Origin: a virus
IMG/VR virus record: IMGVR_UViG_3300040770_000387
Direction: 5' to 3' (one strand)
DNA length: 64,000 nt
Shown here: one piece after another, positions 1,077-11,252 of the stretch
Numbering within the stretch: the stretch's first letter is position 1
Layout: every line of letters starts with the position of its first letter
The notes under the pieces: generated by a model
What the model was told of the DNA's origin: nothing
Seen by the model: the letters and a program-made list of their open reading frames with translations, nothing else
Databases searched by the model: none
Position numbers and translations under genes: made by a program

Positions 1077-1585
1077 AACTTTTCGATATTCAAAACGGTG
1101 TTGTTGTCCCCACCGAACATTGCTACACGCTGTTAGCGTTAAAGCAGATAATGACGGACTACCCCGATGATTACCTTGCCGTGTATTGTTATGTTTTTTA
1201 CATGACTTGCCCTAACCCAGAACTTAACCCTTTTTTTGATACTCCTGAAAATGAAAAAGAAGACCTTATTATATCGCAACTCAACATCAACTTTTCAACC
1301 GAAGACGACACGGTACAAGTCGCGCTTATCTTTTGTGAAAAGATGTATGAGACACCTACTTATCGCGCGTACATGGGTATCAAGTCTATGCTTGACCGCC
1401 TTGCTGTATACCTTCAGACTACCGCCATCGAGCATGGCCGGGACGGAAATATCAATTCTATGGTTAATGTGGCGGCAAAATTTGAGCAGATCCGCAACTC
1501 GTTCAAGGGTGCTTTTAAAGATCTTAAAGAAGAACAAAAGAGCACCGTCCGAGGCAATCAGCATATTGGCTACGACCAGCTCTAA
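1070..1585 (+). CDS. Conserved helical protein, possible terminase small subunit
   Basis: 171 aa, helical, C-terminal VRG..IGYDQ tail, located shortly upstream of TerL. Function inferred from position only. Confidence 0.5.
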   Translation: MVKLFDIQNGVVVPTEHCYTLLALKQIMTDYPDDYLAVYCYVFYMTCPNPELNPFFDTPENEKEDLIISQLNINFSTEDDTVQVALIFCEKMYETPTYRAYMGIKSMLDRLAVYLQTTAIEHGRDGNINSMVNVAAKFEQIRNSFKGAFKDLKEEQKSTVRGNQHIGYDQL

Positions 1586-1805
1586 CAAAGGAAGCATTTA
1601 CAATTTTGATAAAGGACCTAGGCTTAGTAATCGAAAGCTGCATTACGACCATCAAACTGAAATTTGGATGTTGTATCACGAAGCAGACACTGAGGCTTTA
1701 GAGCAAGGAAGAGTTGCTTATTATGGCGTAATCCGATCTAAAAATGTAAACGAGCTTCTGGCAATGATGGCCCCTAATCACTTACCTGAGAATCCTCATA
1801 ACTAA
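1566..1805 (+). CDS. Small hypothetical phage protein (about 79 aa, probable TTG start)
   Basis: C-terminal part of track ORF 1236..1805. LHYDHQTEIWML...VIRSKNVNELLAMM resembles a small Bacteroidota-phage family. The in-frame TTG at 1566 avoids a large overlap with 1070..1585. Confidence 0.45.
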   Translation: MATTSSNKGSIYNFDKGPRLSNRKLHYDHQTEIWMLYHEADTEALEQGRVAYYGVIRSKNVNELLAMMAPNHLPENPHN

Positions 1806-1811
1806 ACGCTT

Positions 1812-1997
1812 ATGTACATAAAGATCATTCATAAATCAGATGGTAAACTAGTAAGTCTTCACATGCACCATCTCCCCAGAGTACATGAGTTAGTAGTAGT
1901 AGACCAAACAGTTTATAAAATCTTAGATGTGCTTTGGCATATAGAAGACATCCATTTCATTCATGCCGAACTGATTGTTGAAGAACATACTCCCTAA
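1812..1997 (+). CDS. Small hypothetical protein (61 aa)
   Basis: Fills the gap before TerL; leader aaacgcttATG is like other genes here. Confidence 0.6.
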   Translation: MYIKIIHKSDGKLVSLHMHHLPRVHELVVVDQTVYKILDVLWHIEDIHFIHAELIVEEHTP

Positions 1998-2003
1998 ACT
2001 CAC

Positions 2004-4205
2004 ATGTACGCAAACATCCCCACTTATACTGCTGCTACAAAAGAATGGACCTACACCGCTTTTGAAACTAGAGCAGAATTAACCGATTACTTATGGACTC
2101 ATTTCAAAGAGCCCGGAAAATACAAGTTTGATGAAACATCAAAGATGTTTAACGAGCAAGCCCGACGCTACAATCGCGATCGGGTTTACTGCGTTGCACC
2201 GTATCGTTCTGCAGATTTTATTCACTACTGGAACACTGAAAAAGAAAAGTGTCGACAAGGAACCATTTTTATCGGTAAAAAGAACACTTGGTTTTTAAGC
2301 CGAGACTATTACATGTGGCTAAATTTTCTGCCTATCTACAACAAAGAGGTTGCCAAGTTTACCTTTCCTGAGGTTCGAGACGCGCAGTATCACATGTCGC
2401 TTTACGAAGAGATTGCAAAACACTCCTACAAGCACGCCGCGATACTTAAGAAAAGACAGATTGCATCTTCCTACTATCATGCAGGAAAAATGATCAACTT
2501 GTTTTACTTTGAGGAAGGGTCTATCAATAAAATGGCCGCTTCACTTAAAGATTACATCAACGAAAAAGGAACTTGGAGATTCTTAGAAGAATACCGAAAC
2601 TTCTTAAACACGCACACGGCTTGGTACAGACCTTGTACTCCAGACAAAGTATTGTCTTGGGAGCAAAAGATCGAAGTAACCATTAACGGTAAGAAAAGCG
2701 ACATCGGTCTCAAGTCTGTTATAATGGGTGCTGGTTTGGACAAAGATCCCACAAATGGTGTAGGGGGTCCCTGTACGTTTTTCTTTCACGAGGAGGCCGG
2801 TATTGCCCCCAGAATGAACGAAACAATAGAATACCTTATGCCTGCTATGAAATCCGGTATGACCTATACTGGAATGTTTGTTGCGGCGGGATCCGTAGGT
2901 AACTTAGATCAGTGTGAACCGCTCAAGGAAATGATCATGAATCCAGACTCGAAAGATGTTTTGGCCGTGGAAACTAACTTGATGGATGCAGAAGGACAGA
3001 TCGGAATGTGTGGGCTTTTTATTCCAGAACAATGGTCTATGATTCCATGTATCGATGAGTTTGGAAACTCTCTGGTAGAAGAAGCCTTGGAAATGATTCG
3101 TGTAGAACGTATTGACTGGAAGAAAAAACTAAGAGCTGACGATTACCAACTTCGTATTTCTCAGAAACCGACTAACATTGCTGAGGCTTTTGCACACCGA
3201 ACTAAGTCTAAATTTCCATTGGCACTTGTAACCCAACAAATGCGCCGCATTGAAGACAAGACGTACTTCATGGAATACGTTGACCTATCCGAGAAAGAAG
3301 ACGGTACTATTGAGATCAAACCTTCCAAACGCATTCCTATATTAGAATTCCCATTGTCTCCAAAGACAGTAGATAAAGAAGGCGTTGTAGTAATGTATGA
3401 GAGACCCTGTAAAAAACCAGGTTTTGGAATGTACTACGGATCAATTGACCCGGTTGCCGAAGGAAAAACAACTACATCAGACTCGCTCTGTTCTATATTT
3501 ATTTACAAGACTGCGCAGCAAGTAACTAAGCATCGTATTGATGGCACCGCAGAAACTATTATTGAACGCGATGGATTAGTGGCCTCTTGGTGTGGGCGTT
3601 TTGACGATTTAAACAAGACACACGAAAGATTAGAATACATCATACGGGCATACAACGCCTGGACTATTGTAGAAAATAACGTGAGTTTGTTTATTCAATA
3701 CATGATTTCCCGACGCATGCAAAAATACTTAGTACCAAAACATCAGATTCTTTTTCTTAAAGAGTTGAATTCCAACACTAACGTGTTTCAAGAATACGGC
3801 TGGAGAAACGTAGGTACGCTTTTTAAAACCAACATCATGTCGTACGGCATCCAGTTTCTGGAAGAAGAGTTGGATAAAGAAACTTTACCAGACGGGACAA
3901 TTACAAAAACTACTTTCGGCGTAGAGCGAATTCCAGACATTATGTTGCTTAAAGAAATGGCGGCATACCGCGATGGACTTAACGTCGATAGAATAGTAGC
4001 ATACTGCGCGCTTGTTGCTTTTGCTAAAGTCCAAGAGTCTAACCGAGGAGGTTACACCAAACGCGTTGAACATGAGGACGAAAGTTTGCTCAAGTCGAAT
4101 AAAAACGTTAAATTAAAAGTGAGCCCCTTTCGTCACATTGGTGCCACAAGCGGTAGTTCTTCTAACAGACGCCCACCAAGAAACCCATTCAAAAACATGC
4201 GTTAA
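2004..4205 (+). CDS. terL: Terminase large subunit
   Basis: Walker A-like AILKKRQIASSY, Walker B FFFHEEAG, coupling motif VAAGSVG, RNase H-like YGSIDPV and C-terminal DRIVAY. Length typical of crAss-like TerL. Confidence 0.95.
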   Translation: MYANIPTYTAATKEWTYTAFETRAELTDYLWTHFKEPGKYKFDETSKMFNEQARRYNRDRVYCVAPYRSADFIHYWNTEKEKCRQGTIFIGKKNTWFLSRDYYMWLNFLPIYNKEVAKFTFPEVRDAQYHMSLYEEIAKHSYKHAAILKKRQIASSYYHAGKMINLFYFEEGSINKMAASLKDYINEKGTWRFLEEYRNFLNTHTAWYRPCTPDKVLSWEQKIEVTINGKKSDIGLKSVIMGAGLDKDPTNGVGGPCTFFFHEEAGIAPRMNETIEYLMPAMKSGMTYTGMFVAAGSVGNLDQCEPLKEMIMNPDSKDVLAVETNLMDAEGQIGMCGLFIPEQWSMIPCIDEFGNSLVEEALEMIRVERIDWKKKLRADDYQLRISQKPTNIAEAFAHRTKSKFPLALVTQQMRRIEDKTYFMEYVDLSEKEDGTIEIKPSKRIPILEFPLSPKTVDKEGVVVMYERPCKKPGFGMYYGSIDPVAEGKTTTSDSLCSIFIYKTAQQVTKHRIDGTAETIIERDGLVASWCGRFDDLNKTHERLEYIIRAYNAWTIVENNVSLFIQYMISRRMQKYLVPKHQILFLKELNSNTNVFQEYGWRNVGTLFKTNIMSYGIQFLEEELDKETLPDGTITKTTFGVERIPDIMLLKEMAAYRDGLNVDRIVAYCALVAFAKVQESNRGGYTKRVEHEDESLLKSNKNVKLKVSPFRHIGATSGSSSNRRPPRNPFKNMR

Positions 4206-4232
4206 TCGCACCAAATCATAATAGCCTACACT

Positions 4233-6959
4233 ATGCCAAAATTAGTAAACGCATTACAGCTAAAAAAAGGGGTTCGTGCCGACCACAACAGGATGGGTAC
4301 CGTTACTCAACCAATACAATTTACACTTTCTGCTGACAAAGACGAAGAGTGGGCTGCCTGGAACATGGACTGGTTGGAAATGCAAGGAATGAAACAAGTG
4401 CGTCAAAATGCACCTTGGTTGCTAAAGAACTACAAGCTTGCCAACGGAATCATTGACAAGACAGATTACATTGTTGAAGAAAACAATGAGCATGCTGAAA
4501 TGCTAGACGTGTTGACCAAACAAGATGACTCCGCTATGGAGCTGCGTTTTTATCCTATTATTCCAAATGTAGTTAACGTTCTCACAAGTGAGTTTGCTAA
4601 ACGCAACGATAAGATAACTTATCGCGCGGTAGACGATCATACGTACAACGAGATGCTACATGAAAAGCAAGGAATGATCGAGCAGACGCTTATGGCCAAA
4701 GCAGAGCAAGACATGCAACAAACTATTGCATCAATGGGAATTGACATGCAGTCTGAAGAAGGCTCAAAACAAGCCCAGCAAATGATGAGTCCTGAAAACT
4801 TAAAAACGCTTCCTCAAATTGAGCAGTTCTTTAAAAAAGAATACCGCCCAATGATTGAGCAATGGGCCACGCATCAGCACAACGTAGACACAGAACGTTT
4901 CTCTATGAAAGAATTAGAGACCATAGGATTCAAAGACATGCTTACTGGAGATCGTGAGTTCTGGCATTTTAAAATGGAAGAAGACGATTATGACATTGAG
5001 CTGTGGAATCCGCTGCTTACTTTCTATCACAAATCACCAGGAGCACGTTATGTATCACAAGGAAACTTTGTTGGTAACTTCGAGATGCTTACCGTTGCTG
5101 ATGTCATTGACAAGCACGGACATAAAATGAACAAGGCGCAACTAGAATCATTACAAGAAATTTACCCTGTTACATCAACAGGTTATATTATACCAGGATT
5201 GCAAAACGACGGTTCGTTTTACGATGCCACGCGCTCACCAGAATGGAACCAACACGGGCCATCATTAGGAATGAGACAATTCAACTCGTTCCGGGACAAC
5301 TTAGAGTCTACCGGAGATGACATTATAGAAAGCATACTAAACGAAACAGAAGACTTCAAAGCTTTTGGAAACGCAAGTTTGCTTCGTGCTACTACTGCTT
5401 ATTGGAAAACACAACGTATGATCGGACACCTTACTAAAATAGGCAACGATGGTATTGCAATAGAGATGGTAATTGACGAACGGTACAAAGTAACCGATAA
5501 ACCGCAGTATGACAACACAGTTATGCCGCAAAAAAGTAGAGAAACGTTGCAGTTTGGTGAGCACATCGACTGGATCTGGATTAATCAGACTTGGGGTGGA
5601 CTTAAAATCGGACCCAACAGAGCTGGTTTTTCTAGCCATAACGACACAACAGGTTTTGCACCAATATACTTGGATCTTAAGCCAGTAAAATTTCAGTTTA
5701 AAGGAGACTTTACTCTGTATGGTTGTAAGCTTCCTGTAGAAGGAGCTATTTTCTCTAATAGAAATTCACGTTCTACTTCTCTGGTGGACAAGATGAAACC
5801 GTTTCAGATTGGATTCAACTTAGTTAACAATCAGATTGCCGACATTCTTGTCGATGAACTAGGTACTGTTATCTTGCTAGACCAAAATGCTTTACCTAAA
5901 CATTCTCAAGGAGAAGACTGGGGAAAAAACTCTTTTGCCAACGCCTATGTTGCCATGAAAGATTTTCAGATGTTGCCTCTTGACACATCTATTACCAATA
6001 CAGAAAACGCCACAAACTTCCAGCATTATCAAGTATTGAACTTGGAACAAACCAATCGACTAATGTCGCGCGTGCAGCTGGGTACTTATTTTAAATCACA
6101 GTGTTTTGAAACCATTGGTATTACTCCACAGCGTTTAGGCGCAGTTGGAGGACAAGAGACTGCTACCGGAGTAGAACAAGCTGTCAATCAAAGCTACACT
6201 CAAACCGAAATGTACTTCGTGCAACACTCCGAATATTTAATGCCAAGAGTACATCAGATGCGTACGGACTTAGCACAATACTATCATTCAAAAAAACCAA
6301 GCGTAAGATTGCAATACATGACCTCGTTAGAGGAGAATGCCTACTTTGAAATTAACGGTACAGAGCTCTTAGCAAGGGACTTAAATGTGTTTGCTTCCAC
6401 CAAAGTAAACAACAGACAAATCATTGAACAATTCAGATCTCTCGCCATGAGTAACAATACGGCAGGGGCTTCTATCTTTGATTTAGGTAATATTATTAAA
6501 GCAGACTCTCTTGCTGAGATTACCGTGGCTATGAAAACCATGGAAGAAAAAGCGCAAGCATCAGAAAAACAAAAGCAAGATGCATTAATCGAAGCAGAAA
6601 AAACCAAGCAAGAAGGAGAAACTACACGTCAAGAAGCAGAACTTCGCCATGAGGCAGAAGAAAAAGCGCTTGATAGAGAGAACAACCTTGAAGTAGCTAA
6701 AGTTCGTTCTGCAGGATTTACTGCAATGAAAGATATGGACGGAGACGGTGAAAATGATTATATCAAAACTCTGGAATACTTGGACAAGAAAAATGCAGCT
6801 AACGATGACCAAGCAATTGCTCGTCAAAGAGATGTTAACAACCAGGCAAACGAACAAATCAAAAACAATATCAAAAGAGAAGAGTTAGGTTCAAGAGAAC
6901 GTATCGCACAAAAACAGCTTCAAATTGCTAGCACAAACAAGAATAAGTATGACAAGTAA
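4233..6959 (+). CDS. Portal protein
   Basis: 908 aa directly after TerL; YPIIPNVVNVL and GITPQRLG motifs, coiled-coil C-terminus with D.DGDGEND. Crass-like portal size and position. Confidence 0.9.
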   Translation: MPKLVNALQLKKGVRADHNRMGTVTQPIQFTLSADKDEEWAAWNMDWLEMQGMKQVRQNAPWLLKNYKLANGIIDKTDYIVEENNEHAEMLDVLTKQDDSAMELRFYPIIPNVVNVLTSEFAKRNDKITYRAVDDHTYNEMLHEKQGMIEQTLMAKAEQDMQQTIASMGIDMQSEEGSKQAQQMMSPENLKTLPQIEQFFKKEYRPMIEQWATHQHNVDTERFSMKELETIGFKDMLTGDREFWHFKMEEDDYDIELWNPLLTFYHKSPGARYVSQGNFVGNFEMLTVADVIDKHGHKMNKAQLESLQEIYPVTSTGYIIPGLQNDGSFYDATRSPEWNQHGPSLGMRQFNSFRDNLESTGDDIIESILNETEDFKAFGNASLLRATTAYWKTQRMIGHLTKIGNDGIAIEMVIDERYKVTDKPQYDNTVMPQKSRETLQFGEHIDWIWINQTWGGLKIGPNRAGFSSHNDTTGFAPIYLDLKPVKFQFKGDFTLYGCKLPVEGAIFSNRNSRSTSLVDKMKPFQIGFNLVNNQIADILVDELGTVILLDQNALPKHSQGEDWGKNSFANAYVAMKDFQMLPLDTSITNTENATNFQHYQVLNLEQTNRLMSRVQLGTYFKSQCFETIGITPQRLGAVGGQETATGVEQAVNQSYTQTEMYFVQHSEYLMPRVHQMRTDLAQYYHSKKPSVRLQYMTSLEENAYFEINGTELLARDLNVFASTKVNNRQIIEQFRSLAMSNNTAGASIFDLGNIIKADSLAEITVAMKTMEEKAQASEKQKQDALIEAEKTKQEGETTRQEAELRHEAEEKALDRENNLEVAKVRSAGFTAMKDMDGDGENDYIKTLEYLDKKNAANDDQAIARQRDVNNQANEQIKNNIKREELGSRERIAQKQLQIASTNKNKYDK

Positions 6960-8381: not shown

Positions 8382-10001
8382 ATGAGTACACCCGTATTAA
8401 ACAATGGATTGTTCTTGCGCGACACGAACTACAAGACGAGCTCGCACTTAGACTCTTACCATTTACAGAACATGCTCAAGTCAACTGACCCTATGGATTT
8501 AGGACCTGTTGATTTGTGGGCAATGACACAAAAGGTAGAGATGCCTTTGTATCAAATGGCTTCATTTGGTGGTAAAAACACTATAATGGTAGACAACGCA
8601 AGAGGAGAATACAAATGGCAAACGCCTATTGTAAACGATCTTCCTTACATCGTTGAAGACGTTGAACCAGGAGTTGCCATCTTAGGACAAGACGGAACAA
8701 ACTTCAAAATCAAATTGAACAAGCGTGCTTTTGGACATGGTGATATCATCACTTATGACAAGTACAAAGGAGCGGAACTTTATATCACAGCAGAAGACAT
8801 TCTTCCTGGTGGTGACGGTTTCATCTTTACGGTTCAGTTGGTAAACAACGACAACCAAAAATCATTGGACAAGAAATACTTGAAACCAGGTACTTCTTTC
8901 TTCAGAAAAACTTCTGCAAGAGGTGAATACGGAGAAAAGTTTTCTGATCTTGGAGAATTAAGCAATGGCTTCCGTGAGTACTACAACTATGTTGGTGGTG
9001 CTGAAGCACATGCTCACTACTCTGTATCTTCTCGTGCTGAGTTGATGTTAAAAGGTGGAATGAATGCGGATGGTACTGTACCAGTTACAGAGATCTGGAG
9101 ATCATTTGACAAGAACATCGACCCTTCTATTACGTCTATTGACGGGATGGTTGCGAAAATGGGTAAAGAGTACATCAAAAAATCTTATGACAATGGTAAC
9201 TTAAGCCGTTCGTTTGTTACGAACATGGAAGCTGCTCACTTGACTAAGATTGCTACGGATATCGAGACTTACTTAATGTGGGGACAAGGTGGACGTATCA
9301 AACAAGATGGACCAGATGACATCAGACTATCTGTTGGACTTTGGAATCAATTGGACAACTCTTACAAGAGAATCTATAATAAGTCAAGCTTTAGCTTAGA
9401 TTTGTTCCGTTCTGAAATTTTTAATTTCTACAACGGTAAAGTAGAGTTCAAAGGACCAGATCCTAAGAGACAGATCATCGTTCAAACTGGTATGGCTGGT
9501 ATGAAATTGGTTAACCATGCAATCAAGAAAGAAGCTATGAGTGCTGGTCTTGTTGTTCAAGCATCTGATATCGGAGCAATCTCTGGTAAAGCGATGGACT
9601 TGGATTTCGGATTCTCTTTCACTTCTTACACGATTCCGTTCTTGGCAAACGTAAAGTTTGTGTTGAACCCGGCTTTTGACAGCGTTCACACGAACGACAT
9701 CGAGAACCCAATCATCGACGGATTCCCATTGTCTTCTTACAACTTTATTGTGTTTGACATCACTGACAACACAAACGACAACATTTACTTGTTGAAGTTG
9801 AAATGGGACAACGAAATGAAATGGTTCTACCAAAACGGAACAATGGATTACATGGGTCGTTCTCAAGGATTCGCATCAAGCGGAAACTTCAACGGGTACA
9901 GAGTATTCATGACGCAAACAATGCCTTCTATCTGGGTTAAAGACCCAACTAAAGTGTTGAAAATTGTAATGAGAAATCCTATTACAGGAGGTTCATTCTA
10001 A
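8382..10001 (+). CDS. Major capsid protein
   Basis: 539 aa after the scaffold-like gene; EYKWQ, TYLMWGQGG..GLWNQL and C-terminal WVKDPTK..IVMRNP resemble crAss-like MCP. Confidence 0.9.
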   Translation: MSTPVLNNGLFLRDTNYKTSSHLDSYHLQNMLKSTDPMDLGPVDLWAMTQKVEMPLYQMASFGGKNTIMVDNARGEYKWQTPIVNDLPYIVEDVEPGVAILGQDGTNFKIKLNKRAFGHGDIITYDKYKGAELYITAEDILPGGDGFIFTVQLVNNDNQKSLDKKYLKPGTSFFRKTSARGEYGEKFSDLGELSNGFREYYNYVGGAEAHAHYSVSSRAELMLKGGMNADGTVPVTEIWRSFDKNIDPSITSIDGMVAKMGKEYIKKSYDNGNLSRSFVTNMEAAHLTKIATDIETYLMWGQGGRIKQDGPDDIRLSVGLWNQLDNSYKRIYNKSSFSLDLFRSEIFNFYNGKVEFKGPDPKRQIIVQTGMAGMKLVNHAIKKEAMSAGLVVQASDIGAISGKAMDLDFGFSFTSYTIPFLANVKFVLNPAFDSVHTNDIENPIIDGFPLSSYNFIVFDITDNTNDNIYLLKLKWDNEMKWFYQNGTMDYMGRSQGFASSGNFNGYRVFMTQTMPSIWVKDPTKVLKIVMRNPITGGSF

Positions 10002-10011
10002 TAGCATAAAA

Positions 10012-10121
10012 GCCACACCCGGGGATTAACTAATACCGCCCCGGAGTTTGTGGTAAAGAATCCACTTCCCTCCCTTTTGTCAGCGCTCGCTGACAAGCAC
10101 AATGCCCGGATCCTTTCCGGG
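10012..10121 (+). other. Three GC-rich hairpins after the MCP stop
   Basis: H1 CCAC/GTGG plus CCGGGG/CCCCGG (10013-10053); H2 TTGTCAGC/GCTGACAA (10077-10096); H3 CCCGGA/TCCGGG (10105-10121). None is followed by a U-tract. Confidence 0.75.
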
Positions 10122-10123
10122 AA

Positions 10124-10176
10124 CTCCTAAGAGTAACAACCTTGACGTGGTTTAGGAGCTTTAAACTAATAGTTAC
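10124..10176 (+). ncRNA. Minimal HDV-like (theta-like) self-cleaving ribozyme fold
   Basis: P1 CTCCTAA(10124-30)/TTAGGAG(10152-58); P2 GTAACA(10133-38)/T-[A]-GTTAC(10170-76); P3 ACC/GGT; L3 TTGACGT; P1.1 G10144-C10159; J4/2 CTAA with C10166. The +1 base is an atypical C. Confidence 0.65.
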
Positions 10177-10229
10177 AAAAACAGAAAGAAGAAAGAATAC
10201 AACCAATTAACCAACAAAAACAGAAGCAC

Positions 10230-11252
10230 ATGGCATCGATTACAATGATTGACAAACACCAGACACTGAAGCGCAACGCAAAGATTACCATCAGACCTTA
10301 TGTAGATGGAATGACAGCAAACATGGGCTTAGAAAGATACGACATGGTTCTTTTTGAAGGCGTGTTTCACGAGGAGCAAATTTGCTGTCTTGAAAACAAC
10401 GGGATCAGACGTTATGTTACAGGTCTTAATGAGTTTGCTCCGGAGATTAAATTGATTGAAGACGAAGACGAACGTAACGCAGCGATCAAACAGATTCGCC
10501 TTAACGTAGCGCAATTGGAAAGAGAATTGGTTTCTAACGTAATCGACGTAGAAGCAAAAGATTTTTGGAATCAAGTAAAATTACTTAGACCAGATAACGA
10601 TGAGTTTTGGGGAAAGATCACTATGCGTTTTGGAAATGCACCTGTTTTTTTAGAACCAAATTCAGATCCGTATGATTTTATCAAATTGTTAGCTATTGAG
10701 GCAGGAGGATTTTCTCTTGTTTCGAAATCGCTTGAAGAAGCCAGAAGTGCACCAGTAGCTCCTAAGTTTTTCTTAGATCGTTTTGAAGAGACGGCTTCTA
10801 TTCGCACAGAAGTTAAAAAAATGCGTAATAAAGCTCTGGCTGAATTACAAAAACTTTTTGACAAAAACGTAAACAAATTGTTTTACACCTGCAAGGTGGT
10901 AGATGGAAATTCTACACAATACAAAAAGTCTACACCGCTTGATGTTCAGTACGATAACATGGACCAGTATATCAACGGAGAAACTGTAGACAAAGACAAA
11001 CGCAAAACGGCAACACGCTTCTTAGAAGTAGCAGCCTTAGATATGGAGACATTGAAATTGCGTGCTATTATCAAAGATGCTAACTTTTACAAACTTCTTG
11101 CTACCAGAGGGGACGGACTAATTTATCACATGAAATCAAGCACTATGCTAGGAAAGACTCCAGCAGATGTATTGGCTCATTTGAAAAATCCATTAAACGA
11201 GGAAATCCTTGGAGACCTAACCGCTAGTGTAGAGACCTACTGGAACTCATAA
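10230..11252 (+). CDS. Conserved crAss-like protein (gene-75-like) downstream of MCP
   Basis: 340 aa; synteny with the crAss-like capsid block; YVTGLNEFAP and DNDEFW motifs. Confidence 0.7.
   Translation: MASITMIDKHQTLKRNAKITIRPYVDGMTANMGLERYDMVLFEGVFHEEQICCLENNGIRRYVTGLNEFAPEIKLIEDEDERNAAIKQIRLNVAQLERELVSNVIDVEAKDFWNQVKLLRPDNDEFWGKITMRFGNAPVFLEPNSDPYDFIKLLAIEAGGFSLVSKSLEEARSAPVAPKFFLDRFEETASIRTEVKKMRNKALAELQKLFDKNVNKLFYTCKVVDGNSTQYKKSTPLDVQYDNMDQYINGETVDKDKRKTATRFLEVAALDMETLKLRAIIKDANFYKLLATRGDGLIYHMKSSTMLGKTPADVLAHLKNPLNEEILGDLTASVETYWNS

Follow-up and report, generated by a model that had tools for sequence, protein, structure and literature searches.

The window analysed here, a 64,000-nucleotide stretch of DNA from a crAss-like phage (IMG/VR record IMGVR_UViG_3300040770_000387), contains a block of genes that all lie on the plus strand and are separated by gaps of 27-122 nt, with a single exception. 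The one long gap, of 228-231 nt, lies between the major capsid protein gene (8382-10001, plus strand), whose assignment in the initial annotation is borne out by matches to PF23898 (Crass_capsid, 4.3e-32) and phrog_11589 (Crassvirus), and a gene for a 340-aa product (10230-11252, plus strand) that has no Pfam or PHROG match. The capsid stop codon is followed on the same strand by a hairpin without a U-tract (hairpin 1, 10013-10053, MFE fold), which has a GC-rich equivalent in relatives, and by a C/U-rich motif at 10060-10074 (TCCACTTCC...; TCCACTTCCCTCCC) that is conserved in relatives as CTCCACCTCCTC or CCCTCTCTCCCC. Two further plus-strand hairpins lie downstream, hairpin 2 at 10077-10096 (MFE and centroid folds), with a hairpin at the same position in relatives, and hairpin 3 at 10105-10121 (MFE fold), which ends 2 nt before the predicted cleavage site of the element studied here. 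This element comprises 53 nt (10124-10176, plus strand), is present in one copy within the window, and is followed by a 53-nt A/purine-rich leader of the 340-aa gene (10177-10229, plus strand), in which the stretches ACAGARAGAAGAA and AACCAACAAAAA are conserved in relatives. The gap as a whole folds better than shuffled sequences (z = -3.15), mostly owing to the three GC-rich hairpins upstream of the element.

Scans of the plus strand of the gap for sigma-70 promoters and intrinsic terminators were empty, ARAGORN found no tRNA anywhere in the window, as had been claimed, and a BLAST search with 9400-10900 against 50,697 deposited phage genomes gave no match. The C/U-rich motif was considered as a repeated promoter and rejected, since the window has one exact match to it and no excess of matches when one mismatch is allowed; a switch in which the motif pairs with the 3' strand of P1 was also rejected, as the relatives give no support for it. 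The CTCCACCTCCTC version of the motif contains the anti-Shine-Dalgarno-like CACCTCCT.

The element can be read as a nested double pseudoknot in the order P1-P2-P3-L3-P3'-P1'-P1.1-(P4)-J4/2-P2', with the consecutive segments CUCCUAA, GA, GUAAC-A, ACC, U, UG, ACGU, GGU, UUAGGAG, CU, UUAAA, CUAA-UA and GUUAC. P1 consists of seven perfect pairs between CTCCTAA (10124-10130) and TTAGGAG (10152-10158), P2 of five pairs between GTAAC (10133-10137) and GTTAC (10172-10176), while P3 (10139-10151; ACC 10139-10141 with GGT 10149-10151) encloses L3, TTGACGT (UUGACGU, 10142-10148). G10144 of L3 forms P1.1 with C10159, beside U10143·U10160 (3' side, 10159-10160). A short joiner (10161-10165) occupies the HDV P4 position, where no P4 is present, and J4/2 (10166-10171) starts with CTAA, the first base of which, C10166, is the equivalent of C75 and the putative catalytic cytosine. 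U10142 and G10147 correspond to the reverse wobble U20·G25; since most of the patterns and regular expressions used already demanded the G25 equivalent, its constancy among the matches is partly built in. The first pair of P1 is C10124-G10158 and not the G·U or G-C pair that a G at +1 would form, and P1.1, present and covarying in relatives, is reversed in orientation relative to the usual C(L3)-G, with U·U in the second position. The pairings named in the initial annotation, the absence of P4 and the position of C10166 can each be read directly from the DNA. Its P2 with one bulged A corresponds to an additional pair, A10138-U10170, with A10171 bulged, for which there is no covariation, relatives having U, G or A there.

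An Infernal search with the Rfam HDV-type models, which had been proposed as a check, gave no match in the window at the gathering score or in 9980-10260 at E values up to 10, and the relatives that carry a P4 had no HDV-type match at E up to 1; the lncRNA and sRNA matches of these searches were regarded as spurious. A loose descriptor (any P3, L3 of the form NUNNNGN, P1 7/7, P2 of at least 5 pairs, CNRR) matched the window twice, compared with a mean of 0.71 matches in 100 dinucleotide shuffles, and its second match is within chance expectation. Because shuffled windows match this often, finding the fold in a single sequence is not significant, and a fortuitous resemblance in an AT-rich intergenic region has to be considered. 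It is thus conservation and covariation in relatives, and not the single-sequence fold, that carry the case for the predicted structure.

A search with the capsid protein yielded 80 IMG/VR loci with 77-87% identity, of which 77 were usable. In 31 of the 77 the element lies in the same place and on the same strand, ahead of the gene homologous to that for the 340-aa product. Its stems change in sequence while retaining pairing, P1 from CUCCUAA/UUAGGAG to CUUCUGA/UCAGAAG or CUCUCAA/UUGAGAG, and P2, which has 6 bp in relatives, from GUAAC/GUUAC to GCAAC/GUUGC or AGUAGU/ACUACU. P3 switches from ACC/GGU to GCC/GGC in two of the loci found through the protein (L021 and L029), and in 30 more unique sequences. 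The loops vary in places: several lineages have G in place of the U20 equivalent at L3 position 1, and three relatives (L023-L025) combine an L3 of UUUAAGU with A instead of C directly after P1. The exact HDV P4 site is occupied in many relatives by a small hairpin, and the sequences of these hairpins are unrelated to each other. In an alignment of 32 members 97.8% of the cells are paired, with changes on both sides in five of the seven P1 pairs and six of the six P2 pairs. None of 500 shuffles reached the observed pairing or covariation, and controls with slid partners were 28-48% paired. The covariance model used for this purpose encoded only P2 and P3, so that P1 was not part of the model structure. 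The formal pair count refers to the 32 minimal members, because MAFFT and the covariance model misalign members with a P4 or a long J1/2, which were parsed by script instead. As judged from these alignments, the fold is a real, conserved RNA of HDV ribozyme architecture. The covariance check of post-capsid intergenic regions suggested at the outset therefore revealed a conserved element with covarying P1 and P2, and the comparative analysis supports the whole fold, which had been put forward either as a variant, possibly slow, ribozyme or as an HDV-fold element that does not cleave.

The crAss-like relatives share a module with the order capsid stop codon, hairpin 1, C/U-rich motif, one or two hairpins, element, A-rich leader and start codon, in which the last hairpin typically ends 1-5 nt before +1 and stem sequences differ. 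The element precedes the homologue of the 340-aa gene in all of the crAss-like relatives that bear it. In five relatives an extra small ORF lies between the capsid gene and the element, so that it is with the 5' side of the downstream gene, and not with the capsid gene, that the element is associated. Small ORFs that separate the RNA module from the capsid gene were seen in L016, L019, L020, L022, L027, L049, L050, L056, L058, L061 and others, and are either of a Lys/Gly-rich type (MAGNPKTPKS...) or unrelated to it.

At the same spot, at least 19 sister crAss-like phages carry a different conserved RNA of ~60 nt, termed element B (e.g. L051:4201-4262; further carriers include L043, L045, L047-L050, L052-L055, L060, L062, L068 and L073). 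Element B is a three-way junction that has an N-UGAUCA loop and in which the junction sequence UAYGCN forms a pseudoknot with the loop N'GCAA. In its alignment 94.1% of the cells are paired and 12 pairs are changed on both sides, the pseudoknot pair being AU in 12, GC in 6 and CG in 1 sequence; it has no Rfam match. The C/U-rich motif and hairpins (window 10057-10121) stand 5' of both types of RNA, and element B may be a functional analogue of the HDV-like element. About a third of the relatives have neither RNA here and show a hairpin with a U-tract only, which indicates that the element is dispensable, and we infer that the module serves to tune expression without being essential.

Scans of viral and metagenome sequences uncovered related cores in more than 100 distinct phage sequences. 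The core pattern ACCTTGACGTGGT-N5-AGCT was found in 78 viral stretches, with a complete fold in ~44 of 49 unique cores, and in 596 Gb of bacterial genomes it had at least 120 matches, of which 2 of 120 had the fold, both on phage-like contigs; the remaining bacterial matches are chance matches in GC-rich coding sequence. Further scans added ~30 members with GCC/GGC, ~34 with a U-A form of P1.1, and more from metagenomes. The members come from phages of freshwater and other environments, crAss-like and jumbo-sized contigs among them, and are intergenic, on the strand of the flanking genes. Upstream of the P2 3' strand the sequence C-N-R-A is present in ~87 of 93 unique elements, although this pattern was not required in the search. 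Together with the conserved orthologous place and the covariation in all four helices, the size of the family refutes a chance resemblance, to which we assign practically no probability.

Two of the searches left the 3' side of P1.1 free to vary. When L3 was set to UUGACGU and positions 36-39 were left open, nucleotide 38 was C in 30 of 30 unique sequences, and when L3 was set to UUUACGU and positions 38-39 were left open, it was A in 34 of 34. Nucleotide 38 thus follows L3 position 3 (G-C or U-A) without exception (64/64), which establishes P1.1 as a real, covarying pair. The first pair of P1 differs between these cores and canonical ones. In the 30 sequences with a G-C38 core it is C-G in 26, G-C in 2 and G·U in 2, with A-U, U·G and A·C all absent. 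The 34 sequences with a U-A38 core have C-G 16, G-C 6, G·U 8, A-U 3 and U·G 1 (A·C 0), and 70 canonical theta cores, in which CC pairs with GG, have C-G 1, G-C 18, G·U 42, A-U 4, U·G 4 and A·C 1. As C1-G37 occurs in 26 of 30 reversed cores versus 1 of 70 canonical theta cores, C at +1 is not an oddity of the window and is tied to the reversed P1.1. The C-G pair at +1 and the reversed P1.1 pointed out in the initial annotation are therefore the rule in a large phage family. Judging by the cores collected, this is a large and apparently undescribed subgroup in which both core pairs beside the predicted cut site are reversed; literature searches returned no description of such cores, and none of them occurs in those supplementary files of the theta ribozyme study that were consulted (PMC10879173).

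Several lineages have additional features. Seven loci (L543, L561, L582, L614, L617, L569 and L564) share the P3/L3 core and C1, and have a long conserved insertion after P1.1 (CTTGTGAGGCTCAGTGACC...) that may be a peripheral domain. Eight others (L086, L095, L103, L113, L137, L147, L153 and L100) from another phage group have a conserved RGGTTGAAATTCCY motif 30-60 nt upstream, a variable hairpin, and AAAT before +1; the RGGTTGAAATTCCY region of this group is not a tRNA according to ARAGORN. Canonical CC/GG theta cores with a base other than G at +1 were also encountered (L422, L438, L473, L476-L478, L480, L491 and L493), their first pairs being U1·G37, A1-U37, A1·C37 and one C1-G37. Such cores would escape a search that requires the G at +1 seen in every hit of the published tables.

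One locus (L377) has five HDV-like copies within 11 kb (1100-6900, minus strand) between consecutive small genes, each with its own P1, P2 and P4, and another (L281) has three copies, likewise between consecutive small genes. Occurrence in many unrelated phages with several copies per genome, and a P1 that on its own is a 7-bp hairpin, might also be expected of a feature acting on DNA or transcription, such as a miniature mobile repeat, an inverted repeat bound by a protein, or a terminator hairpin. Such a feature is highly improbable, as the G·U pairs in the stems are compatible with the plus strand only, that is, they work on the transcribed strand alone, the pseudoknot pairings P2 and P1.1 covary, and the orientation is always that of the flanking genes. 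Moreover, fresh mobile copies would not differ in stem sequence yet keep their pairing as these copies do, and a terminator is contradicted by the missing U-tract and by the scan, which finds none on the plus strand.

The base at +1 is linked to the genomic context of the element. C1-type elements lie between protein genes in 86 of 89 cases and abut a tRNA in 3 of 89, while 13 of 18 G1- or A1-type members with a variant P1.1 are located at tRNA 3' ends; counted by context, C1 is found in 86 of 91 non-tRNA members, and G1 or A1 in 13 of 16 tRNA-linked ones. In L286 the acceptor stems of tRNA-Lys and tRNA-Leu end with the discriminator A, which is directly followed by C1 of CACUAUC..., and in L597 the discriminator U of tRNA-Thr is directly followed by C1 of CUCUAUC, with a core that is otherwise like that of the window. 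Members with the same L3 and P1.1 and a canonical G1·U37 or G1-C37 also abut tRNA 3' ends (L279, L282 and L288). A further locus (L391) has three copies of the U-A type, each after a tRNA, in an array of 20 tRNAs. In L095, L113, L131, L147 and L296 ARAGORN reports tRNAs with the anticodon CUA (amber suppressors, labelled tRNA-Pyl), a possible sign of the stop-codon recoding seen in gut phages with theta ribozymes.

Placement between tRNA position 73 and +1 favours cleavage, because an uncleaved 3' extension would block tRNA maturation, and among the indirect evidence this argues most strongly for a cut. Theta ribozymes with experimentally demonstrated activity are arranged in the same way relative to their tRNAs. 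It also bears on the proposal that the RNA has an HDV fold without cleaving and acts as a structured 5'-UTR element, for example as a barrier to 5' exonucleases, a ribosome-recruiting site or a protein-binding site. This would fit the mRNA contexts, in which the element always lies 17-55 nt upstream of a start codon, the failure of Rfam ribozyme models to match, and a C at +1 with a reversed P1.1, both of which depart from residues that HDV needs for full activity. A role of this kind is nevertheless unlikely, given the elements positioned exactly at tRNA 73/+1 in L286 and L597, the existence of family members with the canonical G1·U37, and the retention across unrelated phages of the J4/2 cytosine that is catalytic in HDV-like ribozymes.

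By analogy with these ribozymes, the element probably cleaves itself at 10123/10124, between A10123 (-1) and C10124 (+1) on the plus strand, the scissile bond being predicted from the HDV architecture, and the cut would most likely fall in the late message, just before the next gene. Consistent with cleavage, the base at -1 is almost never G (A in 68, U in 19, C in 5 and G in 1 of 93 unique elements), which matches the preference of HDV for U>C>A>G; the C at +1 speaks against it, as the activity of HDV falls upon changes of G1:U37 (PMC1874588). Available RNA data consist of assembled contigs from four freshwater metatranscriptomes that cover one relative (L003), and contigs cannot show ends. 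The capsid gene of this relative has a depth of 20-97 in three runs and of less than 6 in the fourth. In the one run with a readable contig end, the abundant capsid contig stops just after hairpin 1 and not at the predicted cut. No metatranscriptome contig of L003 covers the ~100 nt past the end of the capsid contig, none bridges the site, and three of the four runs have coverage again from 11-32 nt inside the element onwards, with a depth of 4-22. This gap weakly suggests an RNA break near the element, and strain variation or a promoter could look the same. A scan of metagenomes found no contig that begins at C1.

If the element cleaves as proposed, the late transcript would fold into the nested double pseudoknot during synthesis, and C10166 together with a bound Mg2+ would, as in HDV and theta ribozymes, catalyse the attack of the 2'-OH of A10123 on its bond to C10124. 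This would leave a 2',3'-cyclic phosphate on the upstream RNA and a 5'-OH on the downstream RNA. The upstream product would comprise the capsid ORF and end 2 nt after a GC-rich hairpin, while the downstream product would have the compact ribozyme at its 5' end, followed by the 53-nt A-rich leader and the 340-aa gene. As a result, the capsid message and the RNA of the lower-copy genes might decay independently of each other.

Small ribozymes would in this way acquire a concrete task in phages, namely the enzyme-free cutting of polycistronic late or early messages, and in the window the proposed cutting comes right after the protein that is needed most abundantly. Activity would further mean that the HDV active site tolerates, or even needs, the coordinated reversal of two stacked pairs beside the scissile bond, and would offer a clean way of testing what the G·U wobble and its metal site contribute. 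That these RNAs form a distinct class of HDV-like catalytic cores, with co-reversed pairs (C1-G37 on G-C38) that go against the long-standing G1·U37 rule, and specialised for cutting phage mRNA and not tRNA, and that element B is possibly an analogue or a new self-cleaving class, is a tentative proposal that we hold to be possible rather than probable. Motif searches that fix G at +1 and C-G in P1.1 would miss the whole group.

Among known HDV-like ribozymes, the closest in layout are the theta ribozymes, with the arrangement P1(G...)-J-P2-ACC-U-CC-ACGU-GGU-P1'-GG-L4-CUAA-P2' (Kienbeck et al., 2024; PMC10879173). Four of them cleave in vitro, and a C-to-U change abolishes cleavage; more than 80% are found in gut phages and 58% abut tRNAs, and the 526 hits of that study away from tRNAs lie in non-coding regions on the gene strand, with an unknown role (PMC10879173). 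The element resembles them in length (~53-56 nt), strand order, a P1 of 7 bp, a P3 of ACC/GGU or GCC/GGC, an L3 of 7 nt that ends in ACGU, an absent or tiny P4, a J4/2 of the CUAA type, and its occurrence in phages. The P3/L3 core is ACC U CC ACGU GGU in theta and ACC U UG ACGU GGU in the element, and the theta descriptor (G...; ACC, U, CC, NCGY, GGU; ...; GG; ...; CUAA) does not fit the window, which has C1 and UG/CU in place of G1 and CC/GG. Theta ribozymes thus have a G at +1 and a P1.1 of CC/GG, whereas the element has C1-G37 and a P1.1 of G-C plus U·U, so that it amounts to a theta scaffold with two differences beside the predicted scissile bond. The window also has no tRNA 3' end within 5 nt of the predicted cut, as is required of tRNA-linked theta ribozymes. 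While theta ribozymes mostly occur in gut phages and at tRNAs, the present family belongs to environmental phages, and its C1 members mostly lie between protein genes.

According to the initial annotation, the L3 of the mammalian CPEB3 ribozyme differs by one base from that of the element. P1.1 combines a single G-C pair with a U-U pair in both RNAs, as described for CPEB3 (PMC4836649). Unlike the element, the CPEB3 ribozyme has G1·U36 and a full P4, orients the P1.1 pair in the usual way as C(L3)-G, and lies in an intron. In HDV itself, a change of either base of G1:U37 lowers the activity, with A1:C37 as the best substitute (PMC1874588). The genomic and antigenomic HDV ribozymes share with the element the nested double pseudoknot, a catalytic C that opens J4/2, the reverse-wobble U and G in L3, and a preference for a pyrimidine or A at -1, but differ in their requirement for G1:U37, the two C-G pairs of P1.1 and the long P4.

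R2 and L1Tc RNAs begin with HDV-like ribozymes that have been linked to translation. These retrotransposon ribozymes cut the co-transcript just upstream of the ORF (PMC3774820), and the ribozyme remains as the 5' end of the coding RNA, as would be the case for the element. They differ from it in belonging to eukaryotic retroelements and in having large J1/2 or P4 domains and a canonical core. Set beside all of these systems, the element is, as far as its architecture goes, HDV-like, yet it has no G at position 1 and reverses P1.1.
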